A DNA stretch of 63,138 bases, the filler included, from Octopus bimaculoides (taxonomy: Eukaryota): the NCBI RefSeq assembly GCF_001194135.2. It is 5 parts of 4 records of this genome, joined end to end, with 100 filler letters (N's around TTAATTAATTAA, not from the genome) between each part and the next. Parts side by side here need not be neighbours in the genome. Positions count along the whole stretch, not along the records: positions 1 to 19,736 come from NC_068986.1; positions 19,837 to 34,888 come from NC_068985.1; 3 more parts are not named here. One strand, written 5' to 3'. The notes beneath the pieces are model-generated. The model was given only the letters and a program-made list of their open reading frames with translations. It had not been told where the DNA came from and searched no databases. Shown here in pieces: positions 2,626-34,988 of this stretch (position 1 is the first letter of the stretch; each line of letters opens with the position of its first letter). The position numbers and the translations under genes are program-made.

Positions 2626-2629
<4 letters not shown>

Positions 2630-9025: not shown

Positions 9026-9197
9026 GTTCTATATTTAAGAGATGAGGAATTATGTACATTATTTACATTTGACGGATATTTGTCCTCATCTTGTTTCTTA
9101 TCAACACAACGTTTGGGCTAATATACCCTCCAGCCTTCATCAGGTGTCTTTGGGAAATTTCGAACCTGGGTTCTCATTCCTAAGGTATTTTTCGATG

Positions 9198-9243
<46 letters not shown>

Positions 9244-9337
9244 TCAGGTCATTGCCTGGAATCGAACTCGGAATCTTGGGGTTAGTAGCCCGTGCTATTA
9301 ACCACTACGCCACAAGCCTTCAAAACAACGAATAACG
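9026..9337 (-). mobile_element. tRNA-headed SINE-like unit, family D, full length, carrying a hammerhead motif
   Basis: Minus strand: A/B boxes, (AAT)n, body, hammerhead, then tail ...CCGTCAAATGTAAATAATGTAC. Collinear with 52525-52755(+). Confidence 0.9.
9103..9150 (-). ncRNA. Minimal type-I hammerhead ribozyme, family D, with a G12-to-C defect
   Basis: Minus strand: AAGACAC-CUGAUGA-A-GGCUG(GAGGGUAUAU)UAGCC-CAAAC-GU-U-GUGUU. Stem I is GACAC/GUGUU; stem III is the palindromic ACGU. The GAAA core reads CAAA (position 9115). Confidence 0.7.
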
Positions 9338-9740
9338 TTGGTGCCAGGGACCATGTACGTGTGGGAATATCTGTGTATACATATATGTATGTGTGTACGT
9401 ATGTGTGAGAGGATATATATATATATATATACGTATATTCCCCCTCAAATGTGGTGGCAGTGACTGTTCACGTACATCTGGACACACATATGTACTCATC
9501 TATATATGCTTTTAAATCGTTTGATATCCAAGTATGGTTATGTACACAGACACAGACATGTGTATTGGAGTGTCTAAAACCATCTGTATGACCTTATATA
9601 CTGTTTGTAGTCTTTTTATGTGTCATATTTTTATATTTTCATTTTTCATTCATTTATTTTATTTTTACTGTATTCTTATTTGTATTTCTATTTTATTTTT
9701 ATTTTTATTCTTTACGTTATATTTGTGTTGAATTTTTGTG

Positions 9741-9848
9741 AATCTCTGAAGAGGCCTAGCGAATCATGCATGTACCCCCATTTCAGCATTTCATCTACTA
9801 ATTACTCCGGCAGGAGCTATTCGGATAGAATGGGGCATGCCAACGCTA
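9741..9848 (+). ncRNA. 5' half of a type-I hammerhead with a long loop-II insert, family E; 3' half lost in the gap
   Basis: AATCT-CTGAAGA-GGCCTAG, then ~86 nt containing TATTCGGATAGAATGGGG, then CTA|NNN. The complementary 3' half is seen in the paralogue at 28875-28926. Confidence 0.6.
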
Positions 9849-10435
9849 NNNNNNNNNNNNNNNNNNNNNNNNNNNNNNNNNNNNNNNNNNNNNNNNNNNN
9901 NNNNNNNNNNNNNNNNNNNNNNNNNNNNNNNNNNNNNNNNNNNNNNNNNNNNNNNNNNNNNNNNNNNNNNNNNNNNNNNNNNNNNNNNNNNNNNNNNNNN
10001 NNNNNNNNNNNNNNNNNNNNNNNNNNNNNNNNNNNNNNNNNNNNNNNNNNNNNNNNNNNNNNNNNNNNNNNNNNNNNNNNNNNNNNNNNNNNNNNNNNNN
10101 NNNNNNNNNNNNNNNNNNNNNNNNNNNNNNNNNNNNNNNNNNNNNNNNNNNNNNNNNNNNNNNNNNNNNNNNNNNNNNNNNNNNNNNNNNNNNNNNNNNN
10201 NNNNNNNNNNNNNNNNNNNNNNNNNNNNNNNNNNNNNNNNNNNNNNNNNNNNNNNNNNNNNNNNNNNNNNNNNNNNNNNNNNNNNNNNNNNNNNNNNNNN
10301 NNNNNNNNNNNNNNNNNNNNNNNNNNNNNNNNNNNNNNNNNNNNNNNNNNNNNNNNNNNNNNNNNNNNNNNNNNNNNNNNNNNNNNNNNNNNNNNNNNAT
10401 CGATGATAGTAACGGCGATTTTTTAATGATAATCC

Positions 10436-10511
<76 letters not shown>

Positions 10512-10550
10512 GATGATGATGATGACGATGATGATGATGATGATGATGAT
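10436..10550. repeat. (GAT)n microsatellite
   Basis: Direct reading. Confidence 0.95.
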
Positions 10551-11039
10551 TTGTGGAAAGAGGATCGACATGACGTTGATCATGAACAGAAGTTGAAATT
10601 TTAAAAAATGCAATATCTCAGAGAATCGGATACAAAACTGAAACTAAATCCCCAAAGTTCGGACAACGCCTTTTAAAGGACAATCGTTCACAAACCTCCA
10701 GAACTATCACAACGGAATCCTCAACCCACTCACCAAACACATAATCTTCAAATACAAAACGGAAAAGGCCATGCATATACGATAAATCTACGCTAGTAGT
10801 TTGACATATACAATAAGGAGATTTCGAAAACCTGGATTAACTGATATTATCAATGCAATTATGCGATAAAATCCCTCAGTACTATAGTTTGAATTATAAA
10901 ACCAACAAGTTAGAGAGATTAGTCCCATAATATTCTTAATCAAAGTCACTGGATTCTCTCTGCTTCTGCATATTTTGATTCACGCCAACGCAATGCCGAC
11001 TGATAGGAATATTCTTCATTAAAGAGTTATTTATCGTGT

Positions 11040-11236
11040 ATCTTTTATCTTTAATTTGTTTCAATCATTAGAATGTTGCCATGCTGGAGCACCGCCTTGA
11101 AAGGTTTAGTCGAACAAATCGACATTTTTTGTGGGGGGGGTTTTTGTGTGTTTGTTCTATCGGTCTCGTTCTCCGAACTACTAAGTTACGAGAACGTAAA
11201 CAGTACACCAATCCGATTGTCAAGCAGTATTGGGGA

Positions 11237-11268
<32 letters not shown>
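11040..11268 (-). mobile_element. SINE family A, 3' half
   Basis: CCATGCTGGAGCACCGCC...GTCGAACAAATCGAC...TTGTCAAGC..GGGGACAAACACAC matches the 608-1033 copy. Confidence 0.8.
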
Positions 11269-11272
<4 letters not shown>

Positions 11273-11650
11273 GCTATTCATTTCTCCTTTCCGACGAAGA
11301 GCTATGTTCGAAACGCCAAACTCACTCTTCACCNNNNNNNNNNNNNNNNNNNNNNNNNNNNNNNNNNNNNNNNNNNNNNNNNNNNNNNNNNNNNNNNNNN
11401 NNNNNNNNNNNNNNNNNNNNNNNNNNNNNNNNNNNNNNNNNNNNNNNNNNNNNNNNNNNNNNNNNNNNNNNNNNNNNNNNNNNNNNNNNNNNNNNNNNNN
11501 NNNNNNNNNNNNNNNNNNNNNNNNNNNNNNNNNNNNNNNNNNNNNNNNNNNNNNNNNNNNNNNNNNNNNNNNNNNNNNNNNNNNNNNNNNNNNNNNNNNN
11601 NNNNNNNNNNNNNNNNNNNNNNNNNNNNNNNNNNNNNNNNNNNNNNNNNN

Positions 11651-11681
<31 letters not shown>

Positions 11682-11854
11682 TATACACACACATAATTAA
11701 GGGATCAGCAACAGTTGCTTCACCACATACCGAAAATTAGAAATAGCAGTTAAAGAGCTAATTCTACTACTAGAATAAGTCTCCAACAAATAGCAAATAC
11801 AAGAAGAAAAAATAGCGAAACTAACCAGCCTGTGTATGTATGTATATGTATAAA

Positions 11855-12230
11855 TTGACTCCGTCGGTCACGAATGACCATGGGTGTACCTAAGAGATTC
11901 CCTCTCCGAGGTACAAGTCTGGGCGCAAAGTCGCCTCACCGGCGAAAGCACAACCTAGGGTTGTTTGTATGTAAAACCTGTAGTCGCCCATGCCTACTAG
12001 CTTCCCCTCTCTATGCCACCGATGTTATCCAATGGAAAGGGAAAGGCAAGGGCCAATACAGATTGGCACCAGTGACCTCGAAACTCATTTCTAGAGCTGA
12101 GTGAACTGGAGCAACGAGAAATAAAGTGTCTTGCTCAAGAGCACAACGCGCAGCCCGGTCCTGGAATCGAACTTTCAACCTCATGATCGTAAGCTCGACG
12201 CTCTAACCACACTGAGCCATGCGCCTTCAC
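11855..12230 (-). mobile_element. tRNA-derived SINE, family B (core resembles CORE/Meta-type SINE domains)
   Basis: Minus head GGCGCATGGCTCAGTGTGGTTAGAGCG...AGTTCGATTCCAGG (A/B boxes), then TTGAGCAAGACACTT...GCTCCAGTTCACTCAGCT. The domain name is from recall. Confidence 0.8.
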
Positions 12231-12644
12231 TATATATGCGCGATTATATANNNNNNNNNNNNNNNNNNNNNNNNNNNNNNNNNNNNNNNNNNNNNNNNNN
12301 NNNNNNNNNNNNNNNNNNNNNNNNNNNNNNNNNNNNNNNNNNNNNNNNNNNNNNNNNNNNNNNNNNNNNNNNNNNNNNNNNNNNNNNNNNNNNNNNNNNN
12401 NNNNNNNNNNNNNNNNNNNNNNNNNNNNNNNNNNNNNNNNNNNNNNNNNNNNNNNNNNNNNNNNNNNNNNNNNATATATATATATATAAGACGAATAAAT
12501 TAAATAGAGAGATACAATTGACAATCTATTGATTTATTTATATTATAACATCTGCACTATGAATATAATATATGACATTTTAAAAAATCATAAAAAATCC
12601 CCCAAAAGTCAACAATTTGTTTCAAATATACATTATTTGATATA

Positions 12645-12820
12645 AAAGCGGTATTTCGTCTGTCTTTACGTTCTGATTTCAAATTCCGCCGAAGTCGACT
12701 TTGCCTTTCATCCTTTCGGGAACGATAAATTAAGTACCAGTAGCGTACTGAGGTCGATCCAATCGACTGCCCACCTCCTCAAAAATTTCGGGCCTTGTGC
12801 CTAGAGTAGAAAAGATTATT
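12645..12820 (+). mobile_element. SINE family C, 5'-truncated
   Basis: Collinear with the full copy at 61960-62175 (GTCGACTTTGCCTTTCATCCTTTCG..GATAAATTAAGTACCAG ... GGGCCTTGTGCCTAGAGTAGAAAAG). Confidence 0.85.
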
Positions 12821-13974
12821 TTCATGGGTAATTTCAGATAATCGAAGTCTTTCAATATAATGTATTTAGTATATTGTATTTAGAGCTTATTGTAAGTGTA
12901 TTAAGTATGCAGAACGACATTCTGAATATGCCATACCACCTAGAAGTTTATATTCTGGATTATTTGCATAAAGAATCCCTAACTTAAGTGAATGAGAATA
13001 TATAGGGATGATGGGATTATTAGAATCTGTAATATAAACAGACTTGAGTTAAATATGCTAAGGAAGAATCTTATTGATACGAACTTAAGTGATGTCCACG
13101 TCTAAGATGTCATTTTAAGCAGTTTTATATCATACTGAACTTCTAATGAAATTGCAACTGCCTATCTAGAATTTTCTAGAATATAGTTTATAGTTTAGAT
13201 GAATATATTTCTTTATTATCAGTAGTTAAGGCGGCCTTTATTATAGCTTCACCTTAACAACAATGATGCCCTGAAAGGAAGTTGGTTCTCAGAACAGATC
13301 CACTGAAAATAATTTGAGGAGATCTCACAGAAATAGGATTAGAAAGGTCATGTGATCTAGACATTCAGTACGACTACAAAAAAAAAGCCATAAGTATTAC
13401 AGAATATTCAACAGAAACAATGTGAACGTTAGCTAGAACTTCCTCTCGTTAGTAACATAAGATAAAAAGATTCCGAATCCAATCAAAATTAGTAAAATCT
13501 CAGCAACTGCCTACTTAACAGAAGACCTAAAGTGAGCTTTTCAGATGAAGCACCTTGGAATATTGTCCTACATCGAGTAAAAGCCATTCTATTGTTATTC
13601 TAAATATCTGAATATAGTTTTAACGATGTGGCATAGGTCTTCCTAGGTTTTACTACATAATTTTTCATACCATTAGATAATGTATGCTGCGTGTTAACTC
13701 GTGGGAATAATACAAGAAACAAACTTTAAAAGTAACATCAAGACTTAATTCCTCCGTTATATAGTACAGGGGACAAAATGAACATATCACGAATTCCGGT
13801 GGTTGTATAGTTCCTCAATAGATTCGATAACTCAGCTCAGTCCGTCGTTGGTTATATGTGCTCCATTATATTAATTTTGTTCTGGTGAATAACGGCACGA
13901 AACTAACATGACTCGCCTTCAAGAAAATCGCTCACCCATCCGCTAATAGATGCTTTCCATATCCCGCGCAATAC

Positions 13975-14075
13975 TCATCCAATCAAAGAACAGGACTCAA
14001 CCAATGTTCCAAGCTCACGTGTTAGGTAAGACAGCCAATCATTTTAGATTAACGCGCTGAGCCTATAAAAGGCTG
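13975..14075 (+). promoter_or_regulatory. Candidate Pol II promoter: three CCAAT boxes, an E-box and a TATA box
   Basis: CCAAT at 13979, 14001 and 14035 (flanks ATCCAATCA, AACCAATG, AGCCAATCA); CACGTG at 14016-14021; TATAAAA at 14064-14070. All on one strand in a locally CpG-rich patch. Confidence 0.55.
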
Positions 14076-14984
14076 ATCGCCTTCGATGTACCATAACAGA
14101 ATTTGATCTCATTACACAGTGATTGACTATTTGGAAACAGTAGCCTATGTCACTCAAAGCACGTCCTATTGTCTTTCAAAGAATACTCGATAAACAATGA
14201 TGATGCCCCTACAAATAGTAACCAAATCACGATCAAATCTCACCTTACTTTCTTTAAAACAGATTTTAGTTTGAAAAAAATTATGTGTAACTCGCAGTTT
14301 GTAATAATTTTCTGTTCTATCATGGAAGCAAACAACAACAACAACAACCGGCAGTTTGAAAGAGTAATACTGTATTACCTGATCAACACGTTTTATGGAG
14401 CTGCACATCATTGTTACATGAAAGTATTTGATTAGGTTTCTCTAAATCATAGAAACTTATCAGGAAATTGTTTAAACAACAGACGTGTGGAGTTAATTAT
14501 TACATAACTATTTTCTTATTAAACAGCTGAATCGTAACGCTATAGTTCTTACTACACAATAGCATTTTCTACTTTAGAATATTTCCTGAGTTATAGTATC
14601 TCCTGTCCTATAATACTGGCTACACACCAGTATTTTCTGCATCATAATACTTTCTCCGCAATAGTATTTTTTTGCGTTATAATGCTACCTATTCTATTTT
14701 ATGCCTATTGTTAAAAATAGTAAGTCGGGTATAACCTGGAAGGTTGTACCCTAGCATGGCCGCAGTCCAATGACTGAAGGAAGTAAAATGAAAAAGATAA
14801 AAGATTCACCGCTGTTATCACAATGAAATACGAGACAATCACTGCAAAACACACAAGTAAACACATACAAGCACACATATACATGTAAACTCACACACAT
14901 ACAAAGAAATGAAATTGAGAACATTTGCTATTTGATAAAAAGAAAAAACAACAAAACACCGAAAATTTGAAGTTGGTAACTGTT

Positions 14985-15176
14985 ATAAGCACAAGGCTTG
15001 AAATTTTGGCGGAGAGAGAGCTTGTCGATTTCAACGACTCAAGTATTTGAGTGTTACTTTATTTATCGACTCTGAAAGGATGAAATACAAAGTCGACCTC
15101 GGAGCAACAAGAACCCAGAACCTAAAGCTTAGTATTGTGTTCGGCAGGTTAAAAATTCTTCCAGCTCGTCGCCTTG
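14985..15176 (-). mobile_element. SINE family C, diverged
   Basis: Reverse complement of the family C head (AAGGCGACGAGCTGG) and core (TTTATCGAC...AAGGATGAAA..CAAAGTCGACCTCGG). Confidence 0.7.
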
Positions 15177-15757
15177 AACTTGTTAATGTACGTAATTCGT
15201 TGATGTAAAGAATTTAATGAACTTCTTCTCGTCTTATAGGAGTTAAAGCCAAATTTCTATATTTGTAAGTCATTAATAAGTTATTAAAAGGTGCCAAAAC
15301 AAAAGAAACAATGTTTAAAAAAGGACTAACAAATGAATTAATAAAATATCACCAACGACAACAGCAACTACAGCAACGAAGAAATAAACAAATACTTCAT
15401 TAGTTTTATAGACTTAAAAGGAAATGTTCATAATAGTGTGTTGGATGTATGTACTATTCAACCTAGTACCACATCCATCTTATCCCCCACCAACATCACC
15501 ACTAACCACCTTCATCATCTCAAAGAACCAAGCACCATCTTGCCCCACCATCGTCCTGCAGCATCTCGGTTTCTCTTTCAATTCTGCAACGACATTACTT
15601 TACACACACATGTCTATCTATATATCTATATATGTACACAGATAAAACTCACAAACACATTCAAAGATTAGCGATTCGATTAATCTTCGTGTATTATTCT
15701 TTCTTTCTCCCTTCTTTCTTTCTCCCTTCTTTCTCTCATCTATCTCCCTGATTACAT

Positions 15758-15758
<1 letters not shown>

Positions 15759-15788
<30 letters not shown>

Positions 15789-15815
15789 TTCTCTCTCTCT
15801 ATCTCTCTCTCTCTA

Positions 15816-15906
<91 letters not shown>
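15759..15906. repeat. (CT)n microsatellite
   Basis: Direct reading. Confidence 0.95.
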
Positions 15907-15909
<3 letters not shown>

Positions 15910-16273
15910 TTTCTATCTATTTGTGTCCACGTCTCAATAGCTTCCTGTTTTTCACGCTCTTCTTTTCTCATTCCATGAGATTCATTTAACTTAAACAAGC
16001 AAAATGTATGCCAGACACAATGCAAAACGAAATATTTTCTTATTTACGTGTTCGTGTGATAAAAACTATCCACTTAGATGTTGTAGCGTGTATTGGAATG
16101 TAGGTTCAAACCTAGTTTAAAATCTAAAGTTTAAGATCACTTTCTCTGTAATCATTCTCTGTAATCATGCACAACATATATCAAGACATGTTTAACTTTT
16201 TACAGACTAGTTTCCGGATCACTAAAAATTTTATTGTATAAATTCACACGTGCATACACATGCACACGTGCAT

Positions 16274-16343
<70 letters not shown>

Positions 16344-16959
16344 ACACACATTCACAGATATGAGCGCAACCGTCTCTAAAGTGAGTATAGTTTGGTAATA
16401 AACAGTATCCTTTCGTCACTTGTTTTAGCCAACTATGAAGTCTTGAGCAGAGATAGATACCCTTTCTGCCCTTTCACCCTAAGTGCAGTGGGACATCGGG
16501 AATATAACAGTTAGGAGAGGGAACTGCCACAGCAGTCAGCTTGTGCCTAATTTTCAGTTGAGTCGACTAAAGTAACATGCATAATGCTCTTCCATTTAGA
16601 TTCGTAGTTTTATTGAATGCAGACTGCTCTGGCTTTCATTCTATCCGAAGTCTTGTAAAGTTTCGCATAGCCTTAGCGTAAGCAATATTCTCATTGATTC
16701 CGAGGTATTCACAACATTCATTACCGGAGAAAGAATAGATGAACAAGTCATCCGTATCTATGTTTCTTGTCTGGTCGACAATCCTCGTTTGAAATTAGCA
16801 AATAGGAATTCTTATTTTGACAGAATTCCGTTCCTATGTCCCACAGAAATGTACTCAGTTCTTGGTGCCGTTCATATCACTTGAATACAGACATAGGAAA
16901 TTAAGAAAAGAGTGTGAGTAACATTAATTTTTATCTTTTCTGTTGGTCATATCTTGTCA

Positions 16960-18600
16960 TGTAATCTACGCCGATAAAAGCGCAAGTTCTTCAGCTGCCT
17001 TTCCATTTTCGTCTTACCAGCTTGTAATAATGTCCATCCATTGCGTTCTCTACCTGCTTCTTGTTCTACTACCCTCTACTCTTCCTCCATGATAATGTTT
17101 TTCGGACCTCTACCTCTTCGAATATAGCTATGATAGAAGAGCTTTCGTTTTTACACAATGCTAAGGCGTGGTATTTCACCTACTTGTTGTAACACCCATT
17201 CAGTTGTTCGATGGTCCTTGTAAGAGGCTCATAACATTTTTATATTCACCCACATTTTAAATGCATTGATTATATTCTCTTCAATTATGTTCAAAGTTCA
17301 CGCTTCAGAACTACAAATGCTTATCAGTCAAATGAGTGCATGGACTAGCCTTGTTTTTAAATAAGTTCGGACACTTTTGCTACTCCAGATGTTATTAAGC
17401 TTTCTATGAACGTTTTGCCATGGCTAGCCATGTCCTAATTTCTTTCTTACAGGTATCTTCATCAGAGATTTGGGCTCCAATGTATTCATGCAATTCAGCT
17501 TGTTCGAGTCTCTTTTTGCCCAGTTTGATGTTAACATTTACTTTCTTTTTTCCTACTACCATGACTTTTGTTTTCTTATTGTTGAGATAAAAACTATGCG
17601 TATTTGATAACTTCTCGACTCTATTTATCATTTCCAATCAAATTTATCCAGTATAATCTACATACTTTAGATTAGAAATATGCAAACCGTGTATTATAAT
17701 GCCATCTTCCTGTATTGTATCTCGCATCATCTACTCAACATAGATGCAGAACAAGCATGAAAAATGAATACAACCCTGAGGAACTCCATTTCCATTTTTG
17801 AACTTTTCTGTGTCATCATTATTTACACGAATACAGGACTCTTACTGAATGTAAAGCTGCTTGGTGAACCTAAGGATGTGTCTCGGAATGTCGTGATTTG
17901 ACATAACGCACCACATGTTGATATAGTTTGCACCGTCAAAGGCCTTTCTGTAGTCAAATATATCAGAAGAAAGTTGTAAGGTTGTGTAAGGTTGCAAGTT
18001 GTTTTCTAAAATTGTGTGGATATTTTGCAGATATCTTGTGCCACGTCCACTTCTAATCCAGTCTGTTCTCTAACTATTTCTTGTTCGGGGAACAGTTTCA
18101 AACTTAGGATGATGACCAAAAGTATTTTACTTGCATGTAGTATCAGTGTGATTGTTCGATGATTATCACACATAAGCAGGCCTCCCCTTTTGTGTGTGGG
18201 TGCATATTCTATAGAGGTTGTGGAAGTATCGTTATTGAACTCTTTCCTGCACTTTTGATCAATTCAATCGACACTGCATTGAGACCTGGTACTTTTTCAT
18301 CTTCTAAAAATCTTTCCCAGAGCTTTCTCTACCTCACTCCTTAGTGTCAATCACAGCGACTATTCGAGTACTTTCATACAATTTCTTGGTGTATTCCAAC
18401 CATCTTTGTTTTACCAGTCTTGCTGCTGTTATAACTATTTCTGCTTGTGATTTTATACTGTCCGTGTTTGCAGTGTATTCTCTTTGAGATGCTTCACTTC
18501 TTTTGAGTTAGAGAAGACTTTTCAAGTTATGTTTACTTTGTTCTTCCTGAGTTTCTCAGAAATTGGTTATGTACTTGTAGCGTTTGCATTTCCTTAACCT
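16960..18600 (-). mobile_element. RTE-clade LINE ORF2 remnant (RT domain and C-terminus)
   Basis: Minus frames: HASKILLVII...EQEIVREQTG..SGRGTRD; NMWCVMSNHDIPRHILRFTKQLY...KFKNGNGVPQG; LNNKKTKVMV...EYIGAQISDEDTCKKEIRTWLAMAK; AFKMW...TTEWVLQQVG...KRKLFYHSYIRR...RVEG.R.R.R..QWMDII. Many stops and frameshifts. Confidence 0.85.
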
Positions 18601-18764
18601 GGCTAACAAGGGGTTCAGTGCTAGGACAGGGAGCATTCCAAATAAGCTTTCACTCCAGAATATTCCTGTTGGAAGCCTAGAAATTATAATAGTTTCTTCA
18701 GTCATTATTATTATTAGCTCTGTCGATGATGTTGTTGTCAGTCTCTTAATTGTAATGACTATAG

Positions 18765-19018
18765 CAGTGGTTCTGAACCAATTTTTGCCTATGGACCCCT
18801 TTGATTTCAGTTTTACTCTACTAGGCCGCCATAACCATTCATTGTGTATATTTTAAAAATCCTACTGCATTCTGACAATAAATATCATTAGGAATTGTAA
18901 AAAAATTAAAGTATTTTGTGTAATGTCAAAGTATAAGCAATCTATTATCAATAAATTTTAATAGCAAAAGCTTTTCTGGACGCCCAAGGACAATATGGAT
19001 CCCGATTGAGAACCACTG
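18765..19018. mobile_element. hAT-superfamily MITE (Charlie-type TIRs) with 8-bp TSD
   Basis: TIRs CAGTGGTTCTGAACC (18765) and GATTGAGAACCACTG (ends 19018). Flanks GACTATAG (18757-18764) and GATTATAG (19019-19026), 7/8 identical. Confidence 0.9.
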
Positions 19019-20644
19019 GATTATAGCAATAAAAACCATACCAGGTTAGTAGTGACTCTACAATTAACCAAGGACAAAATCAAAAACCTGCTTGTAGTTG
19101 GCCCAGACTATCAGTAGATTTCGGCCGTGCTGTTTAGTCCCTTAACGACAGCATTGTTAATCAGAAGCTGCTTATCACCGTTTCAGGTACCTTTTTTACC
19201 CTTTTTTACTTGCTCATTCGTCACTACATTGTATATTTAACGATGATCCTGGAAGAAAACATTCAAACAGCCTTTGTGTAACTCATACGTGTCTTTCAAT
19301 CACGCTGTTGACTTGTAGTGTTCAGCCACACGTGTCCCCTGAGCAATTAGTGTTGTACGCACAATTACCAACTGATCTGATACGTCAAGATCAGCGTTCA
19401 GCGTTCTTTCGGACAGGTTAACCAGGGTAGAATATGAGCTCTCTGTACCAATAACCCATTAACAGGTCTTCCCTAGGTGATTCTCTGTTTGCTAGTTTTT
19501 CAACAACCGGTAGGAGAGTCTCAGTGCAGACATAGGTTGAGATATTAATCACTTCGTAGCTCGTGGAATCACATATCACGAAAACTATTTGCTGTTTACA
19601 TACCAGCTGCCACCTTAAAAAAATTTACACTGCTTTTTTATGTATGTATGTATGTATGTATGTAGGTATATGTGTGTGTTTATGTGTGTGCGTTTGAGAG
19701 GTATCTCTCTCTTCCTGTATATATATATATATATATNNNNNNNNNNNNNNNNNNNNNNNNNNNNNNNNNNNNNNNNNNNNTTAATTAATTAANNNNNNNN
19801 NNNNNNNNNNNNNNNNNNNNNNNNNNNNNNNNNNNNAGGAGGAGGAGGAGGAGGAGAGGTTCAGTCCCTGATGGTAAAAATTGTATACTGCTCAGTTACC
19901 AATTATCAAAAAAAAATTCATTTAGATTAACTATGTAAATTTGTTATCACCAAAAGAAAATTTTGTGAAAATGCACAAAATAATTTAGGTCCTATTCTTG
20001 TAAATATGTTTTATGCATGTTTATGGCACTCACCTATAAAGCAGTAAATTGGAAGAGTTGTTAAAGTGACAGAGGAAATAACATGTAGAATTTATTTCAG
20101 TAGCTTGAATCTTGAGTTCAAATCCATCCAAGGTCAACTTTCCCTCTCAGCCTTTCATATCAGTAAATGAAGTATCAGTTCTAAGGTGGTGGGCTGTTGT
20201 AAATGTTAGCATGCTTGGCCAGGTGTCTTACTGTATTGATTCTGATTCTTTGTAATCTGGGTTCAAATCCCACTGTGGCTTACTTCAATTGTAGACTTAA
20301 TCCTTCACCTAGTTTAAGATCACCACCTGGTAACTTGGATGCATTTAGCAGTCTACTCTGTTGTAAATATTCAGGTGAGATCTCCACTTTGAGGACATCT
20401 TCCTCTCCCTCCCACCAGATTTGCAGGCCCTGGCCCTCACTCCTGATTGAGAAATAAACAAAACGATTTGAATCACATTTTCAATTGCTTTGATTCAACA
20501 AATCCCATAAAATCAATATTGCTGGGCCAACTAAAAATTGTCAACACATGTGCATGCATGCATACACTCACACACACACACACAGACATACATACATACA
20601 TACATACATACATACATACACACATACATACATGTTGTTTTCTT

Positions 20645-20980
20645 TGACATGGTTTCTATGGCTGGTTGCCCTTCCTGACACCAACCACTTTACAGAGTGA
20701 ATGAATACCTTTGCATGACACCAGTACCAGCAACGTACTCAAATTACTTGCAAGGCAAGCCTCCTCAACTGAGTGGGGAGTAGTATTGAGGGAGGTGACT
20801 TTGGTGCAGCCCACTTTCTTGCCAGTTCCTGTCAAACCATCCAACTCATGCCAGTATAGAAAACAGACATTAAACCATGTTCATAATGATGATGATAACA
20901 ATGATGACAATGATGATAACAACGATGACAACAACAATGACGATAACAACAATGACAACAATGTTGAAGATGATATCTAA
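20645..20980 (+). mobile_element. Non-autonomous retroposon related to the RTE 3' UTR, with (GAT/CAA)n tail
   Basis: 3' segment GGTGCAGC...CATGCCAGTATAGAAAACAGACATTAAA plus trinucleotide tail matches the RTE 3' UTR at 25978-26130. Confidence 0.6.
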
Positions 20981-22146
20981 ATGATGTGGTTTCATAGCCA
21001 TAGTAAGGGTAATCTGTTACATGAGGGCAACATGTGTTCCAGAAGCTATAGTGAATGCAACCCATCTAAGAAACTCTGAAACTGAATTTCAATCAGAGAT
21101 CAGATACAGTATGGAGAAGGAAACTTCTGCTTTATNNNNNNNNNNNNNNNNNNNNNNNNNNNNNNNNNNNNNNNNNNNNNNNNNNNNNNNNNNNNNNNNN
21201 NNNNNNNNNNNNNNNNNNNNNNNNNNNNNNNNNNNNNNNNNNNNNNNNNNNNNNNNNNNNNNNNNNNNNNNNNNNNNNNNNNNNNNNNNNNNNNNNNNNN
21301 NNNNNNNNNNNNNNNNNNNNNNNNNNNNNNNNNNNNNNNNNNNNNNNNNNNNNNNNNNNNNNNNNNNNNNNNNNNNNNNNNNNNNNNNNNNNNNNNNNNN
21401 NNNNNNNNNNNNNNNNNNNNNNNNNNNNNNNNNNNNNNNNNNNNNNNNNNNNNNNNNNNNNNNNNNNNNNNNNNNNNNNNNNNNNNNNNNNNNNNNNNNN
21501 NNNNNNNNNNNNNNNNNNNNNNNNNNNNNNNNNNNNNNNNNNNNNNNNNNNNNNNNNNNNNNNNNNNNNNNNNNNNNNNNNNNNNNNNNNNNNNNNNNNN
21601 NNNNNNNNNNNNNNNNNNNNNNNNNNNNNNNNNNNNNNNNNNNNNNNNNNNNNNNNNNNNNNNNNNNNNNNNNNNNNNNNNNNNNNNNNNNNNNNNNNNN
21701 NNNNNNNNNNNNNNNNNNNNNNNNNNNNNNNNNNNNNNNNNNNNNNNNNNNNNNNNNNNNNNNNNNNNNNNNNNNNNNNNNNNNNNNNNNNNNNNNNNNN
21801 NNNNNNNNNNNNNNNNNNNNNNNNNNNNNNNNNNNNNNNNNNNNNNNNNNNNNNNNNNNNNNNNNNNNNNNNNNNNNNNNNNNNNNNNNNNNNNNNNNNN
21901 NNNNNNNNNNAGGATAAGATCGATATTTAAAATATTGATCTTATCAAGTGGTCAGCATGGGAATAAAAACCATCAAAGGTAATAATTATTTAAAATTATA
22001 ATACAGGGTATCTAAGAGATACCACCACACTGAAAAATAGCAGTCAAATCCTGACTCTAAAACCACAATAAATGTCCACATAGCATGAGTAGCGAAGACG
22101 AAGACCAAATAAACCAGTAAAAATAACAAGATATATATATATATTT

Positions 22147-22194
<48 letters not shown>

Positions 22195-22393
22195 TTTACA
22201 TCAGTGTAGAACAATCCCTGTTGTTGTTTATTTTCAAATGGTGTCAAATTAAGTACTTCACTGAAGTAAGCATTGGGGTCAATATAATCAATTTAAGAAC
22301 CCTTGATGGTTGTGCCCAAGCAAGACTAGAGTCCAATGACTGCAACTAGTGAAAGAATAAAAAATTATGCATGCATTCTGCTTCATAAACACA

Positions 22394-22478
<85 letters not shown>

Positions 22479-23446
22479 GCACACGCATACAATAGATACA
22501 TTGCTTTTAAAATCTAATCCTATTAAAAATATGACTAATGTATTTTTAATCGGCAGTACATATGAAAATAATTTTCTGTCAGATTTTTTCCCATTCTACA
22601 GATTTTTTTTATGTACTACTAAAACTGTTTGTGTCATCTAATATGCTTAGATTTCAAGTGTTTTGACTTTCTTGAAATATTAGTAAAAATCTCATTCAAA
22701 TACCATCTAAAAAGAGAATGAAAATTTGTGGTAATCTCTTCCAGTTTCATGCTTGACTAAAGCATAAGATGACCATGAGTGGAATATCCTTGATCAATGA
22801 TCTGATAGATCAGGGTTAAACTGGAGATAAACAACAATAACATCATCAACAATGATAACAACAATAACAACAACAAGAAAGAACACATTGGATAGTGAAG
22901 TGAGATACAGTGCATCTGAAAAGTGGTGGGTCATAAGAGAATCTTTGATCATAAGTCTGGTGAATAAGAGCAGGTCTGAAGCTAAATAATCACTTGTTAA
23001 GAGTTTTTAAACTATTAGATAGCTCATTGTGTTACAAACAGAATGAATAAAATTTCATTTCATCACAATGCAGCTACATATTTGAAAAAGAAAAGAAAAA
23101 AGAAAAATTACACAATTTAGAAATAAGATGCCCATTAATTTTTGTCTTTGTATATATCTATATACAACCTTATATACAAAATCCAAATCCAGATTTTGTA
23201 CTGAAGAAGTGAGCCACCACTGCCATCAATAAATGTGGCAGAATTGTGCTAACAAGTTGAATTGTATTCTGGCTCCCAGTGCTGCAACATCCATAACACC
23301 TAAGTTAGCACTGTTATAACATACAGTAAGTTTTGGGCATGTCAAACTTCCCCAAACATCAGTCTGCTGACCAGTGGTTAAGTCGTACTGCTCCATGGTG
23401 TGTCTTTGTTTTTGCAGTGCTTCTCCCCTGTTCATCAATTTTTGTG

Positions 23447-24155
23447 ATGGCTGAAACAAAGGAAGAGCATGCTACCATGAAATTCTGTTTTCGGCTGGGG
23501 AAAATGGTGGCCAAAACAGTTGTCATGCATTAGACAGCTTACAAGAACGCTGCCATGACCAAAACACAAGTTTACAAGTGGTTTCCATGCATTAGGAATG
23601 GTCACTTGTTGCTTGAGGACCAACCTCATCCAGGATGACCATCAACCTCCCAAACAAATGAAAACATCATGAAAATTCATGAACTGATCTTAGAGAACTG
23701 TCACCGAAAAATTGACAAACCTGTTGATATGACTGGTGTGTCCTGGAGCTCCTGCCAACGAATTTTCAGTGAGGAATTGTGAATGAAAAGAGATGCAGCA
23801 AAATTTGTGCCTCACTTGCTCACAGAAGATCAAAAGCAGTCACGACTGAATGCATGTCATGAACTGAAAGAACAGTTGGAAGTTGATCAGGATCTTCTTT
23901 TAGAGGTCATCACTGGTGACAAAAGCTGGTGCTACAGAATTTGCAGATGTGGAAGAGGTGAAAAAAAAATGATGGAGGCATTAAAAGGCATCACTTTGCA
24001 AGAGTTCCAGCACTGCTTCAAATAGTGGAAAACACATCTGGACTGATATATTGCTTCAAATGGAGAATACTTTGAAGGCAATAAAAGTGTAAACATGTAA
24101 AACTGAGTGAATAAAATAATACTGCAAAATTCCGGTTTCTTTTGGGTACCCCTCA
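23447..24155 (+). mobile_element. Mariner-type transposon remnant with internal deletion
   Basis: MAETKEEHATMKFCFRLGK..., KFVPHLLTEDQKQSRLNACHELKEQLE..VITGDKSWCY joined directly to FADVEEVKKK...W..H...IASNGEYFEG. Right end ...TTCCGGTTTCTTTTGGGTACCCCTCA is followed by TA. Confidence 0.85.
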
Positions 24156-24543
24156 TATATATATATACTACATATATATGTGTATATGTACATATGTGAA
24201 TGCAAGTGTGTGTGTATGTATGTGTGTGTGTGTGTGCTTGTATGTATGCATGTATGTGTGTATGTATTAATATGTACATAGAATGCATATGTGAATAGAT
24301 AAATAGATGGATGTAATGTAAATAAAGCTGTAGTCTTTATTCACATTTCGTTTCTAGCCTAACCTACGCTCAATATTTAGTCATGATGAGAATCAACTTA
24401 TAAAAGAAGAATAAGCTTAGGCCTGAATGTTTAAGTAAATATTTTAATATTGAATTAAAAGCTGAGTTGGGTTATATGTTAGATGTTTATACTATGACAT
24501 TTCCACCTGCTTCAATAAGCAATAAGATATTTTAACATATACA

Positions 24544-24586
<43 letters not shown>

Positions 24587-25144
24587 TCATGGTACTTGTG
24601 TGTCATATCTGTGTGTACGTGTGTTTGAGCTCTCACACATACATTCATATATATATATATATATACATACACCTACACACACTCACACCTACACACATCC
24701 ACACACCTACACACACACACACACACACACACACATGCACATGCACACTCACACACACACACACACACACACATAGCACCCATCTAAGTAGGTATGTGCA
24801 TTAGATTTTAAATTTTATATATGTATGACTATACATGTTGTATTTAGCAAAGTTATCTTTGCTACACTAAACATGTAAAATGCAGAAATATATATATATA
24901 TGTTTGTGTGCGTGCGTGTGTGTGNNNNNNNNNNNNNNNNNNNNNNNNNNNNNNNNNNNNNNNNNNNNNNNNNNNNNNNNNNNNNNNNNNNNNNNNNNNN
25001 NNNNNNNNNNNNNNNNNNNNNNNNNNNNNNNNNNNNNNNNNNNNNNNNNNNNNNNNNNNNNNNNNNNNNNNNNNNNNNNNNNNNNNNNNNNNNNNNNNNN
25101 NNNNNNNNNNNNNNNNNNNNNNNNNNNNNNNNNNNNNNNNNNNN

Positions 25145-25224
<80 letters not shown>

Positions 25225-25625
25225 ATCTTTTATTGTTTATCTTTTATTTCAGTCATTAGACACCGACCATGCTGGAGCACAGCCATGAAGAATTTTGTAC
25301 TCAAATGAATCCAGTACTTTTTAAAAGCCTGGTACTTATTCTATCATTCTCTTTTGCTAAACTGCTAAGTTAAGGAGATGTAATCACATCAGTACCAGTT
25401 GTCAAGCAGTGGGGTTGACAGAGACATTGACACATACACACACACACACATATGTATATTAAACAATGAGCTTCTTTCAATTTCCTTCTTCCAAATCCAC
25501 TCACAAGGCTTTGGTCAGCCTCAGGCTATAGTAAAAGACACTTGGCTAAGATGCTATGCAGTGGGACTGAAACCAGAACCATGTGGTTGGGAAGCAGACT
25601 TCTTACCACACGGCCATACCTGCAC
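25225..25625 (-). mobile_element. SINE family A, near full length, diverged
   Basis: Collinear with 608-1033 from tail to head. Confidence 0.85.
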
Positions 25626-25666
25626 GTATGAAGTAGGCACAGACATGGCTGATATATATATATAAG

Positions 25667-26055
25667 TGCCGATCTCTCACTGTGGAGGGAACCTGTGGAA
25701 GAGGTAGACCCAGGAAGATGTAGGATGAGGTTGTGAAATATGGTCTTTGAATGTTGAGTCTCATGAAGGTGATAACAAGTGACAAAGACTGTTGGTGATT
25801 TGTTGTGCTTGAGAAGACACATCCAAGCAAAGTGAAGTCATAGTTGTGGCCAGTGCCAGAGACATGTAAAAGGCATTCATGCCAATATCATATATAAAAT
25901 ACCCAGTACACTCTATGGAGTGGTTGGCATCAAGAAGAGCATCCAGCCATAGAAACCAAGCCAAAATAGACTGGAGCCTGGTGCAGCTCTCCAGTTTACA
26001 AGTTCCAGTCAACCTGTAAAAACATGCCGTCATGGAAAATGAATGCTAAATGACA

Positions 26056-26130
<75 letters not shown>
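25667..26130 (+). mobile_element. RTE-clade LINE 3' end: ORF2 terminus, 3' UTR and (GAT)n tail
   Basis: RSLTVEGTCGRGRPRKM*DEVVKYGL*MLSL...DKDCW*FVVLEKT matches the RTE VEGxRxRGRPRKTW motif; ends in (GAT)n. Confidence 0.8.
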
Positions 26131-26132
<2 letters not shown>

Positions 26133-26899
26133 CTGCACTAAATATTTGTTTTTGTTTTGTTCTTTTTTTTTTGCAAAAATGAAGAGACCTCAATATATGT
26201 TAAAGGGTATCATATTTGTACAAAATGAATGAATCATTTCATTTATTCTCAGTTTCTCACTTCAAGCAGCAATAGATATGAAGGAAATATTAAGCTAATC
26301 TGCAGTTCATCTCTATTGCCATTTGGAAGTTCACATTGAGAGAGAGTGACTTTGAAAAACTACAAAATGAATCACTAGCTTCCCACTCACAGCTTTACAC
26401 TCTCTGACTATGTCTCTGTTAAGTCTCCCTCTTGTTCATTATACACTCACCCTCTTATTTACTGGATCATATAACCTGTATAAGGAAGGATGGATTTGTA
26501 CCTGTCTGTCTTTGATTTTCCGCCACCACCCTTTATCACTCTACATATCTTCCATCATGACGTCTATTTAACAAAGGATGTCATTAGCTCTATTTGTGTT
26601 CAATATCCACTATTTTCACCCTTCTTTGCTACTGATCATCCCACACACACACACATAATTTCACAGCATTTCTGAATTTCTCTGCACATAATCAATCAAG
26701 TGACAAAAAGATAAATAGGAAATATTGTTTAGACTGATTTTGAGTGTTCAACGGTGAGCAAAGGGTGCAGAGACTGTAGCATTCCTTAGCAGAAGCAGCT
26801 GGTGCTAGATGACAACTCAGTGTAATATGATGAAAGTTTATTACTATCAAATAAGAAAGGGAGGAGAGGCTTGCAGACAAATGATCTACGACAAGAGAA

Positions 26900-27290
26900 G
26901 CTACTCTGTCTGGATCGAGAAAAATTTTACTAAGTTTCTTTGTCTGGTGACAAAATGATAAAATTTAGCATTTCTTAATTAATGTACTGGATAATTGTGT
27001 CAGAATAAGTTATTTTCAGATTGGTATAAGTTACATCGTCTTACTCCATTTGTGTTCAGATGTGCAGTATCCCTAATGTTCCTGGTTAAGGAGATGCCTT
27101 TATTTTTAGTGTCCCTTAATTTCCAGGTACATACAGATAGAAAAATGAAAATATTTCTATCTTTGAACTTAAATGAATATACATGCTGGTTGTACCTAAT
27201 CTTAAAAGTGCACACTGTTAGTCCAATATCATTCTTTTCAATACAGTTGTTAGAAGAGGACACGTCTGTTTTCATTCCTCCTCTTCACTC
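26900..27290 (-). mobile_element. Penelope-like element GIY-YIG endonuclease remnant
   Basis: ORF 27000-27275: DIGLTVCTFKIRYNQHVYSFK...LSVCTWKLRD...GVRRCNLYQSE, matching the PLE YIGxT..FKxRYxxH..SF....LSxxxWxL.D....CxLCxxE pattern. Confidence 0.8.
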
Positions 27291-27348
27291 TCTATTTCTT
27301 CTCTATATCTTCTCTAGAATAACTATTGCTTAACCATTTTCTCACACC

Positions 27349-27396
27349 GACTCCGATGAAGGGACATATAAAATATCCCAGAAACCGCTGTAAGAC
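27349..27396 (+). ncRNA. Decayed type-I hammerhead ribozyme, family F
   Basis: GACU-CCGAUGA-A-GGGACAU(AUAAA)AUAUCCC-A-GAAAC-CGCU-GU-A-AGAC. U4 is changed to C, with one mismatch each in stems I and II. Confidence 0.55.
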
Positions 27397-27453
27397 CTTC
27401 TCTTTATAAATGTTCTGAAATCTTTCACAGCCTTGGATTTTTATCTCATTCTG

Positions 27454-27489
<36 letters not shown>

Positions 27490-27493
<4 letters not shown>

Positions 27494-27553
27494 TTTATTC
27501 TTTTACTTGTTTCAGTCATTTGACTACAGCCATACTGGAGCACCAGTTTAGTT
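27490..27553 (-). mobile_element. SINE family A tail running into a gap
   Basis: TTCTTTTACTTGTTTCAGTCATTTGACTACAGCCATACTGGAGCACC. Confidence 0.75.
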
Positions 27554-28526
27554 NNNNNNNNNNNNNNNNNNNNNNNNNNNNNNNNNNNNNNNNNNNNNNN
27601 NNNNNNNNNNNNNNNNNNNNNNNNNNNNNNNNNNNNNNNNNNNNNNNNNNNNNNNNNNNNNNNNNNNNNNNNNNNNNNNNNNNNNNNNNNNNNNNNNNNN
27701 NNNNNNNNNNNNNNNNNNNNNNNNNNNNNNNNNNNNNNNNNNNNNNNNNNNNNNNNNNNNNNNNNNNNNNNNNNNNNNNNNNNNNNNNNNNNNNNNNNNN
27801 NNNNNNNNNNNNNNNNNNNNNNNNNNNNNNNNNNNNNNNNNNNNNNNNNNNNNNNNNNNNNNNNNNNNNNNNNNNNNNNNNNNNNNNNNNNNNNNNNNNN
27901 NNNNNNNNNNNNNNNNNNNNNNNNNNNNNNNNNNNNNNNNNNNNNNNNNNNNNNNNNNNNNNNNNNNNNNNNNNNNNNNNNNNNNNNNNNNNNNNNNNNN
28001 NNNNNNNNNNNNNNNNNNNNNNNNNNNNNNNNNNNNNNNNNNNNNNNNNNNNNNNNNNNNNNNNNNNNNNNNNNNNNNNNNNNNNNNNNNNNNNNNNNNN
28101 NNNNNNNNNNNNNNNNNNNNNNNNNNNNNNNNNNNNNNNNNNNNNNNNNNNNNNNNNNNNNNNNNNNNNNNNNNNNNNNNNNNNNNNNNNNNNNNNNNNN
28201 NNNNNNNNNNNNNNNNNNNNNNNNNNNNNNNNNNNNNNNNNNNNNNNNNNNNNNNNNNNNNNNNNNNNNNNNNNNNNNNNNNNNNNNNNNNNNNNNNNNN
28301 NNNNNNNNNNNNNNNNNNNNNNNNNNNNNNNNNNNNNNNNNNNNNNNNNNNNNNNNNNNNNNNNNNNNNNNNNNNNNNNNNNNNNNNNNNNNNNNNNNNN
28401 NNNNNNNNNNNNNNNNNNNNNNNNNNNNNNNNNNNNNNNNNNNNNNNNNNNNNNNNNNNNNNNNNNNNNNNNNNNNNNNNNNNNNNNNNNNNNNNNNNNN
28501 NNNNNNNNNNNNNNNNNNNNNNNNNN

Positions 28527-28563
<37 letters not shown>

Positions 28564-28874
28564 AACGTATGTATGTATGCATGCATCTATCTATCTATGT
28601 GCGTGTATGTGTGTGTGTTTGTGTGTGCATGTATGTATATATATCTATAAATCTCTGTCTGTGAGTATAGTGGAAGTAATTTATTATGATCCCTTTGGGA
28701 AAGAGGTTTTTAGATACAAAAAACTGGTCAGTAGCACTTAAAAGAGAGTATAATAGTATCCTGAGCTTGTTTGGTATCCATTGATTTTGATAACAATAAC
28801 TGTCTGATAACATTAAATACTAGTATAATAAACAGCTTCCACAATATACATACATACATACATACATAGATACA

Positions 28875-28926
28875 TATTCGGATAGAATGGGGTCTGCCAA
28901 AACTAGGCCGTAACAGCTGTAAGATT
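28875..28926 (+). ncRNA. 3' half of the long-loop hammerhead, family E
   Basis: TATTCGGATAGAATGGGG..GCCAAAA-CTAGGCC-GTAAC-AGCT-GT-A-AGATT. CTAGGCC and AGATT are exact complements of GGCCTAG and AATCT at 9741-9759. A13 is changed to U in this copy. Confidence 0.6.
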
Positions 28927-34858: not shown

Positions 34859-34988
34859 CTCTGTGTGTGTGTGTGTGTGTGTGTGTGTNNNNNNNNNNNN
34901 NNNNNNNNNNNNNNNNNNNNNNNNNNNNNNNNTTAATTAATTAANNNNNNNNNNNNNNNNNNNNNNNNNNNNNNNNNNNNNNNNNNNN

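Follow-up and report, generated by a model that had tools for sequence, protein, structure and literature searches.

An octopus repeat family with a type I hammerhead signature and an 86-nt insert in loop II as a candidate Penelope-like pseudo-LTR

Two fragments (copies A and B) in a 63,138-nt stretch of Octopus bimaculoides DNA, hereafter the window, are, judged by their sequence, pieces of one multi-copy repeat family with a type I hammerhead signature. The family combines a complete type I core with a stem II extended by a predicted hairpin of about 86 nt, and on balance we favour the reading that it represents the 3′ end (pseudo-LTR, pLTR) of a Penelope-like retroelement or a non-autonomous derivative. 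The family is intact, whereas neither window copy is demonstrably so; the window contains no whole copy, and N gaps lie directly beside both copies. The features of the two copies are as follows.

9445..9620, + strand: repeat upstream of copy A, at lower depth, after (TA)n at 9413-9431 (read and contig comparison)
9620..9740, + strand: U-rich 5′ flank of copy A (sequence; family reads similarly T-rich before 9734, in an overhang comparison that left out 9626-9719 as repeat)
9741..9745, + strand: copy A stem I 5′ strand, AATCT (sequence; cofold pairing with 28922-28926, pair probability 0.46-0.84)
9746..9752, + strand: copy A catalytic core C3-A9, CTGAAGA (sequence; no extra nucleotide before stem II)
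9753..9759, + strand: copy A basal stem II 5′ strand, GGCCTAG (sequence and fold)
9760..9845, + strand: loop II insert of 86 nt, predicted interrupted hairpin (folds; family variants and indels)
9846..9848, + strand: copy A stem II 3′ strand, beginning CTA and interrupted by the gap (sequence; family overhangs continue it)
9849..10398, no strand: assembly gap of 550 N covering the remainder of copy A (sequence)
28875..28902, + strand: 3′ arm of the insert in copy B, a 5′-truncated copy (sequence, blastn)
28903..28909, + strand: copy B stem II 3′ strand, CTAGGCC (sequence and fold)
28910..28921, + strand: copy B second core half, helix III and GUA (sequence; family letters from reads and contigs)
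28922..28926, + strand: copy B stem I 3′ strand, AGATT (sequence and fold)
28927..28981, + strand: pyrimidine-rich tail 3′ of the copy B hammerhead (sequence; weak post hoc likeness of its last 25 nt to the upstream side of subfamily-2 copies)

All the letters that the first-pass annotation gave for the two copies were found at their positions. Copy B begins where an (ATAC)n microsatellite (28846-28876) ends and reads GTAAC at 28910-28914, AGCT at 28915-28918 and GTA at 28919-28921, with the palindrome ACAGCTGT at 28913-28920; the palindrome homoduplex, computed for the 12-nt stretch 28910-28921, comprises 8 bp at −13.1 kcal/mol, and the cut in this copy is predicted to fall between 28921 and 28922. 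Copies A and B have in common a stretch of 24/26 letters (blastn within the window, E 1.4e-5), and an 18-mer occurs within the window at 9818 and 28875 only. The repeat at 9445-9620 is possibly the upstream part of copy A's own element.

Comparison of the locus with four of 24 listed public runs (X1, X6, X16 and X22; three organism labels) indicated that the join of the two halves is not due to chance, since overhangs past 9848 gave the predicted continuation in all four. The sequence that had been predicted for the gap was recovered at the level of the family, with 21/21 letters in X1 (8 contigs) and X6 (7 contigs) and 20/21 in X16 (5 contigs) and X22 (82 reads), further rows of the latter two runs giving 21/21; for the locus itself it found no such backing, as no listed record spans both the locus flank and the gap. 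Single contigs carry both halves together, as had been expected. Record 13 of X16 covers 9735-9842 plus 31 letters that agree with a one-contig overhang through GAAAC, GUA and AGATT, and records 12 and 14 likewise cover the 5′ half and continue beyond. With the GAAAC core intact and the halves joined on single contigs, the proposed long-loop-II hammerhead family is supported, whereas the core merged across the two copies was right for the family only, copy B being broken at this point (GTAA versus GAAA in the family). At least two subfamilies exist, and copy B belongs to subfamily 2. One overhang consensus in X16 and X22 is AGTTT instead of AGATT, which may break one stem I pair unless 9743 co-varies; no co-varying 9743 row was present among the 40 of 65 variant rows listed. 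A-to-I editing as the origin of A9797G was rejected, G being the majority letter in DNA contigs too (668.7/727.4, X1).

In the family layout, stem I has 5 bp and the basal part of stem II 7 bp, stem III is palindromic and the predicted cleavage triplet is GUA. The conserved core CUGANGA ... GAAA ... UH is complete in the family, its 5′ half coming from copy A and GAAAC and GUA from reads and contigs, and is closed by three helices with positions 1.1-2.1, 10.1-11.1 and 15.1-16.1 paired and with the 5′ and 3′ ends open at helix I. Helix III comprises 2 bp and a palindromic tetraloop and is not favoured in the predicted monomer fold, and G10.1 comes straight after CTGAAGA, with no extra nucleotide in between. 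Docking on loop I normally keeps loop II of a hammerhead short; in this family a short loop II is absent and 86 nt lie between the stem II strands, though an internal loop predicted above the basal stem could in principle serve as the loop I/loop II contact. Among the 40 of 65 rows listed, copy A's core CTGAAGA and stem II strand GGCCTAG showed no variants, and variant places numbered 0/22 in the core and basal stems versus 17/86 in the insert (Fisher p 0.014); neither the two diverged subfamilies nor the three organism labels brought a listed variant into the core and basal stems.

The insert is predicted to form an interrupted hairpin prolonging stem II, in which 9767/8-9772 would pair with 9836-9840/1, 9776-9782 with 9829-9835, and about 9793-9798 with 9821-9826, below an apex of 9805-9808 with 9813-9816. 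Family variants seem mostly to avoid these helices, a weak tendency with p of about 0.01-0.04: pair-breaking variants fell at 3/50 paired versus 9/36 unpaired places (p 0.014) when one helix register was picked with the variants already known, and at 6/52 versus 10/34 (p 0.037) with the a-priori fold, in both cases among 40 of 65 rows. Indels were concentrated at the bulge (9788) and the apex (9809-9817), and folding stability was modestly above that of shuffles overall (z −1.7 to −1.9). No double-sided compensatory change was found among the listed variants, three of which break pairs. A conserved ORF starting in the insert was also considered and, on inspection by eye, rejected; the ATG frames of copy A meet a stop in the family GTAAG, and subfamily-2 letters place a stop directly after the ATG at 9770.

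The assignment to a Penelope-like pLTR is based on the style of the hammerhead and on 5′-truncated copies at microsatellites. The family displays the U-rich flank, short helix I, long helix II, CUGAAGA and palindromic helix III of the Penelope style in the PMC4209133 alignment, and copy B and one truncated copy in X16 adjoin microsatellites, towards which a bias has been reported for Penelope-like elements (PMC8557442). Penelope-like families are reported to be active in the genus Octopus (PMC13282606), and the closest named homologue found for one protein fragment of the window comes from Octopus vulgaris (85%). As the first-pass annotation had remarked of Penelope ORFs, no RT or GIY-YIG ORF lies next to either copy in the visible window, gaps adjoining both; the nearest Penelope-like fragment in the window is at 52022-52495. 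Against Penelope typing stands the missing extra nucleotide after A9, a typical mark of Penelope hammerheads that only 2/44 published rows compared also lack, and against the pLTR reading stand RNA reads that continue through the predicted cut site and a downstream/upstream likeness that hints at tandem units.

Considering these results, we propose the following scenario. Copies would be transcribed and then copied back by a Penelope-type reverse transcriptase, leaving 5′-truncated copies at microsatellites. The lone RNA would adopt an inactive fold, in which the core CUG is paired with the CAG of the palindrome; the inactive monomer fold was computed to lie 4.8 kcal/mol below the hammerhead fold. 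Pairing of two copies via ACAGCUGU, or binding of an element protein, would then free the core for the cut after GUA. Self-cleavage after GUA is predicted for the family and would probably depend on dimerization or on the protein of the element; protein-assisted cleavage has been demonstrated for the Penelope hammerhead of an anole (PMC11167929). Loop II would be free to grow in a ribozyme type that may dispense with the usual loop I/loop II contact, and the hairpin would most likely be retained as a structured handle for the element protein, which is the least certain step of the scenario.

The main rival of the pLTR reading, possible though in our judgement rather doubtful, is a non-LTR retrozyme with a tandem unit of about 180-190 nt, mostly hammerhead plus long arm, that would be cut as a dimer and ligated into small circular RNAs, the window copies being dispersed monomer fragments. 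In a preprint (bioRxiv 10.64898/2026.07.22.740005), dispersed monomers are described as common in retrozyme families and non-LTR retrozymes as derived from Penelope pLTRs. The palindromic helix III fits tandem dimers, the 550-N gap might conceal further units, and about half of the X22 RNA reads carry subfamily-2 letters, versus about 10-17% of the X1 DNA contig depth, in different samples. Furthermore, the sequence lying 30-55 nt downstream of copy B looks like the 30 letters ahead of subfamily-2 copies. However, this resemblance is short, AT-rich, weak and post hoc, its glocal score being equalled by 9/2726 window tiles and 21/2000 shuffles, and the comparison of copy A upstream with copy B downstream was null (990/1000 shuffles equally good). 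Both window copies appear isolated, with no tandem unit in the visible window, and neither the RNA nor the DNA listings contained a go-back joint, a weak test in which three joints were dropped at repeats. Less probable still is a catalytically dead, SINE-like descendant of a hammerhead, whose likeness to one would reflect shared ancestry and recent amplification in the absence of selection for cutting. RNA reads, which come from one RNA run (X22), do cross the predicted site: 82 of them, their strand not readable, pass 9848 by a median of 69 letters, the cut site lying 16 letters in. These fragmented cDNA reads showed no pile-up of molecule ends within the compared stretch, outside which the cut site lies. 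A dead repeat would also fit the predicted inactivity of the monomer fold, the in vitro insertion of the anole Penelope element, which did not require cleavage (PMC11167929), and the 8/9 Xenopus retrozyme dimers without cleavage in the preprint (bioRxiv 10.64898/2026.07.22.740005). Yet the core and basal stems are invariant among the listed rows while 17 insert places vary, and the anole hammerhead likewise gives uncleaved reads though it cleaves with its protein (PMC11167929).

It is very unlikely that the insert is a removable or captured cargo, such as a spliceosomal intron of the pLTR or a tRNA or SINE piece, within a working ribozyme with a short loop II. Introns are possible in Penelope pLTRs (PMC4209133) and the insert contains one GT (9772) and four AG, but coverage by RNA reads stays level over the insert (about 65-100 per mate direction), with no joint skipping it among the 296 X22 RNA reads compared. 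ARAGORN, which also misses the tRNA-like head of another repeat in the window, returned 0 tRNA genes, though the family may extend further 5′; 9440-9848 gave no notable Rfam match, and the insert matched other window repeats with nothing above a 13-mer. Of the 'cargo' originally proposed for loop II, the 86-nt insert itself is present, but the prediction makes it a structured elongation of helix II, and nothing indicates capture. That the two fragments are unrelated, and the hammerhead an artefact of joining by eye, has a negligible chance of being correct. A core with a 4-bp stem II at such spacing does occur by chance, this looser pattern matching 3 metagenome and 8 viral loci, but a stem I of at least three pairs was found at 0/11 of these loci, none of which was insert-like, and they were dismissed as chance matches. 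The predicted continuation in 4/4 runs and the single contigs joining the halves refute the artefact at family level.

We retain the Penelope-like pLTR as the preferred reading. The exact family motifs gave 0 matches in viral, metagenome and genome contig collections. Identity with the published Octopus Naiad ends was rejected, as three family motifs had no match in the PMC8557442 supplement; the 3′ ends of Naiad_Obim and Naiad_Ovul were unlike the family by eye. Rfam returned 0 matches on the window at gathering score, and by E-value only microsatellite-driven miRNA noise, and a strict hammerhead scan gave 0 matches, as expected for a window without a whole copy. Because of the lack of a whole copy, the Rfam blank is an unfair test of the earlier claim that short-loop searches would miss this form, a claim upheld instead by the min-HHR descriptor, which limits loop 2 to 10 nt (PMC4209133 supplement). 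The literature search turned up no cephalopod hammerhead family described as having a long loop II, although precedent is possible in Repbase and Dfam, which it did not cover.

Tentatively, and as a suggestion that may well prove wrong, the family could be the first representative of a hidden group of animal hammerheads whose helix II has become a conserved domain, about 100 nt long, that either regulates the cut or brings in a Penelope protein, and possibly forms most of a small circular retrozyme RNA. If so, long-loop-II ribozymes, including the Naiad 'half cores', would be systematically missed by short-loop descriptors, and 'hammerhead-less' Penelope lineages may carry them. A conserved, transcribed, multi-copy family with an 86-nt, predicted structured loop II suggests that genomic hammerhead censuses undercount and casts doubt on the claim of Penelope lineages without hammerheads. 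The family also offers a natural construct for the role of the Penelope hammerhead and its switching-on by dimer or protein, and its long stem II a ready scaffold for engineered switches.

Among known systems, the Penelope pLTR hammerheads described in PMC4209133 have in common with the octopus family the type I form, U-rich 5′ flank, 5-bp helix I, 7-bp helix II, CUGAAGA, a palindromic helix III implying dimer use and many dispersed single copies. The octopus loop II, of about 86 nt and predicted to be structured, contrasts with 3-9 nt in the 44 rows compared from that source and falls outside the 3-10 nt that its descriptor allows for loop 2; Saccoglossus (2) is the row among these 44 nearest in layout. 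The Naiad 'HHR_half_core' (Craig et al., 2021, PMC8557442), which includes Naiad_Ovul, likewise has a Penelope-like context and core halves beyond descriptor spacing, but the Naiad halves are spaced 35-50 nt and not modelled as complete ribozymes, whereas the octopus family has 100 nt and all three helices. Non-LTR retrozymes, described by Cervera and de la Pena (2020, PMC7229834) and in the Li et al. (2026) preprint, are also short, low-GC, transcribed, multi-copy animal repeats of type I with a 2-bp helix III and tetraloop; they form head-to-tail units of about 150-450 bp with circular RNA and a short loop 2, whereas the octopus family has no short loop 2 for the canonical loop-loop contact, and cephalopods are absent from the main texts of both. 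The mammalian Clec2 discontinuous hammerhead (Martick et al., 2008, via the review PMC2950038) similarly holds a large stretch inside a loop, hidden from searches, though the search concerned tolerated large insertions in loop 1 or 3, not in loop 2, and Clec2 is a host mRNA element of few genes instead of a repeat family. Stem II is where the ORF of the Poseidon PAc of Anolis (Frangieh et al., 2024, PMC11167929) begins, whereas the ATGs of the octopus insert open short frames only; the parallel with the octopus family lies in protein-assisted cleavage, here proposed, and in RNA-seq reads without ends at the cut.

The first-pass annotation proposed a hammerhead family with a long insert in loop II, rebuilt from a 5′ half at 9741-9848 (copy A) and a 3′ half at 28875-28926 (copy B), and each motif that it listed was found in place. 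The window is rich in microsatellites; 56,337 of its bases are called, and its N gaps number 25. At 19737-19836, 34889-34988, 58565-58664 and 61179-61278, two 44-N runs flank 12 called letters, probably through an artefact of assembly or masking. The shared 18-mer occurs at two places in it (9818 and 28875), and in a within-window comparison the likeness spans 26 letters, of which 24 agree (E 1.4e-5). Copy A ends directly after CTA at a 550-N gap, and copy B starts where an (ATAC)n array ends. The core half of copy B reads GTAA, and because the hammerhead core requires GAAA, copy B is a dead copy by established core requirements.

The annotation had also predicted how copy A continues into the gap, and this was borne out at the family level in four of four public sequencing runs; among the pieces listed, none spans both the locus flank and the gap. 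Twenty of the 24 runs found, which bear three organism labels, carry part of 9445-9848, and four were aligned to 9445-9900 at 80% likeness (X1, 237 contigs; X6, 345; X16, 48; X22, 296 raw RNA reads; totals for the entire 9445-9900 stretch). The consensus of the loose ends behind 9848 (the letters continuing past the aligned stretch) agrees with the prediction at all 21 letters in X1 (8 contigs) and X6 (7) and at 20 of the 21 in X16 (5) and X22 (82 reads), which have AGTTT instead of AGATT. The full prediction was also read behind 9840 and 9842 in X16 and behind 9843 in X22. Record 13 of X16 aligned at 9735-9842 and continued for 31 letters, which match the single-contig loose end traversing the core's second half, the GUA site and stem I, and records 12 and 14 cover the 5′ half and continue beyond it. 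The family therefore retains both halves together, with an intact GAAAC, though repeat-derived contigs may be mosaics of several copies.

The 86-nt insert (9760-9845), folded alone or with the 3′ end of copy B as a second strand, was predicted to form an interrupted hairpin atop the basal stem:

9768-9772 with 9836-9840, insert helix of the predicted fold
9776-9781 with 9830-9835, insert helix of the predicted fold
middle helix and 4-bp apex of the predicted fold

Most of the helices have pair probabilities of 0.85-1.0, the middle one about 0.5, and total stability was only modestly above that of shuffles (insert, z -1.85; two strands, z -1.72, 25/500). The variant tests draw on the 40 rows shown (25 were hidden), among which no double-sided compensatory change was demonstrated. 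Variable places numbered 0 of 22 in the core, stem I and basal stem II vs 17 of 86 in the insert (p 0.014). Pair-breaking changes fell on 6 of 52 paired vs 10 of 34 unpaired places in the a priori fold (p 0.037), and on 3 of 50 vs 9 of 36 in a register chosen after the variants had been seen (p 0.014). In this post hoc register, T9796C converts U.G to C-G, A9797G, C9798A and T9767G make new pairs, and C9760A, G9816A and A9837C break pairs; indels were located at 9788 (bulge) and 9809-9817 (apex). Family variation thus moderately backs the predicted fold. RNA coverage is even across the insert and no joint in the X22 reads skips it, so it was not seen spliced. The insert had no tRNA or Rfam family match, and shared nothing beyond a 13-mer with other repeats in the window.

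About half of the X22 reads have one letter set in common (e.g., A9763T in 47/97 and 45/86), and reads with copy-B-style ends, like those whose upstream sequence differs, are probably members of that subfamily as well, a linkage that we infer. These letters make up about 10-17% of X1 contig depth, which is not copy number and gives no copy count; preferential transcription of the subfamily is a mere hint, because the X22 and X1 samples differ. Separately, about one-third to one-half of the X22 RNA reads carry C9811A and A9837C, letters that no X1 or X16 contig shows, which suggests that much of this sample's RNA comes from one locus or a few. Over 9797-9844 in X6, summed contig depth rises to about 36,000-77,000 and G9816A predominates, a pattern that suggests a subfamily or array of very recent origin and high copy number in organism B. 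The X22 reads extend a median of 69 letters past 9848, with the predicted cut site 16 letters in; no read-end pile-up was listed in the aligned stretch, which excludes that site. Mate directions were about equal, so the sense of these reads cannot be told.

None of the family motifs matched in three public collections of non-animal sequence. With a looser pattern, 11 loci were hit in collections of this kind, none with at least three pairs in stem I; core and short stem II can thus arise by chance, and the full helix set did not. We propose the following scenario. In the monomer, the core CUG is predicted to pair with the palindrome's CAG in an inactive fold, at -37.6 kcal/mol for this fold and -32.8 for the hammerhead one (both calculated on the mutated core of copy B), and an 8-bp homoduplex is predicted for the palindrome. 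This fits the dimer model of those animal type I hammerheads whose helix III is palindromic (PMC4209133, PMC6765202 and PMC3088659). It also fits protein-assisted cleavage, shown for the anole Poseidon element (PMC11167929), whose RNA-seq likewise lacks ends at the cut site. The hammerhead-family reading is supported and the feature is real; the family would work like a dimer- or protein-dependent Penelope-type hammerhead, a predicted ribozyme and candidate pLTR. The reading adopted is that of a Penelope-mobilised element whose cleavage would be conditional on a dimer or protein, with the long arm as a putative protein handle.

Other repeats and coding remnants in the window are as follows:

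52526-52754 (+), 9054-9338 (-) and 5827-6007 (+), tRNA-like/hammerhead repeat, unrelated to the long-loop family
52022-52495 (+), ORF fragment with a YSIPCSC..Y.GET...EH pattern
611-1034, 2598-3187, 11036-11272, 25221-25629 and 29973-30288, dispersed SINE-like families, part 1 (self-blast)
39515-39623, 12647-12817, 47810-48256 and 61962-62176, dispersed SINE-like families, part 2 (self-blast)
58617-59606 (+), 4810-5247 (-), 35743-36066 (+) and 3700-3917 (-), decayed coding remnants (by eye)

The tRNA-like/hammerhead repeat opens with a tRNA-like head (recognised by eye; not called by ARAGORN or Rfam), followed by an (AAT)n tract and a minimal hammerhead of Penelope type with a short loop of 10 nt (stem I ACAC/GTGT; CTGATGA and an extra A; 5-bp stem II; GAAA-CG-TT); about 55 nt of tail come last. 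Of the three copies, two extend into the hammerhead, and both carry a change that damages it. The repeat looks like a tRNA-SINE with a Penelope 3′ end, possibly a Penelope-dependent SINE. The ORF fragment ends about 30 nt before the copy at 52526-52754, and we take its pattern to be the C-terminal GIY-YIG endonuclease of Penelope-like elements. Neither it nor six homologs tested matched Pfam, except for one sub-threshold match; for the protein fragment at 52115-52492, 21 of 21 candidates were homologous, the only named one being from Octopus vulgaris (85% identity), which makes an octopus the likely host. Several other SINE-like families are dispersed in numerous copies. By eye, the decayed remnants look like gag/pol of LTR retrotransposons, Tc1/mariner transposase and the ends of non-LTR RTs, and those tested had no significant Pfam match.

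In the long-loop family the flank is U-rich, helix I short and helix II long, and with CUGAAGA and the palindrome this layout matches the published Penelope alignment (PMC4209133), although, unlike typical Penelope hammerheads, it lacks an extra nucleotide after A9. Truncated copies, copy B and one seen in X16 as a loose end before 9799, adjoin microsatellites; such a bias is described for Penelope-like elements (PMC8557442), and Penelope-like families are recently active in O. vulgaris (PMC13282606). Together these features point to a Penelope pLTR or derivative as the likely parent. No Penelope ORF linked to either copy was found in the window, and, with 9626-9719 skipped in the alignment of runs, the upstream repeat at 9445-9620 could not be linked to the hammerhead. 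Tandem retrozyme units are a weaker candidate: the 30 letters upstream of subfamily 2, which includes copy B, weakly resemble the tail of copy B (9/2726 tiles and 21/2000 shuffles reach the glocal score, and 57 tiles and 82 shuffles the local one), whereas the equivalent comparison for copy A gave a null result. The available text of a 2026 preprint (bioRxiv 10.64898/2026.07.22.740005) argues for pLTR descent of such retrozymes, so both readings share an origin.

No report of this family was found in the literature searched, and the family with its long loop II is likely, but not certainly, new. The word 'hammerhead' does not occur in the main text of two octopus or cephalopod repeat papers, one of them PMC13282606; the giant squid paper, in its available text, gives 235 Rfam Hammerhead_1 loci and no detail, and the accessible portions of PMC7229834, PMC7761336, PMC10085705 and PMC10886601 hold no precedent. 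The min-HHR descriptor sets loop 2 at 3-10 nt (PMC4209133), the search for discontinuous mammalian hammerheads permitted a large loop 1 or 3 (review, PMC2950038), and Craig et al. (PMC8557442) sought core halves 7-17 nt apart and reported eight 'half cores' at 35-50 nt. In that paper's supplement, the entry before Naiad_Lpol has both core halves around a 5-bp stem II and a loop of about 30 nt, and in loop length this Naiad 3′ end stands midway from the short-loop forms to the 86-nt loop of the family.
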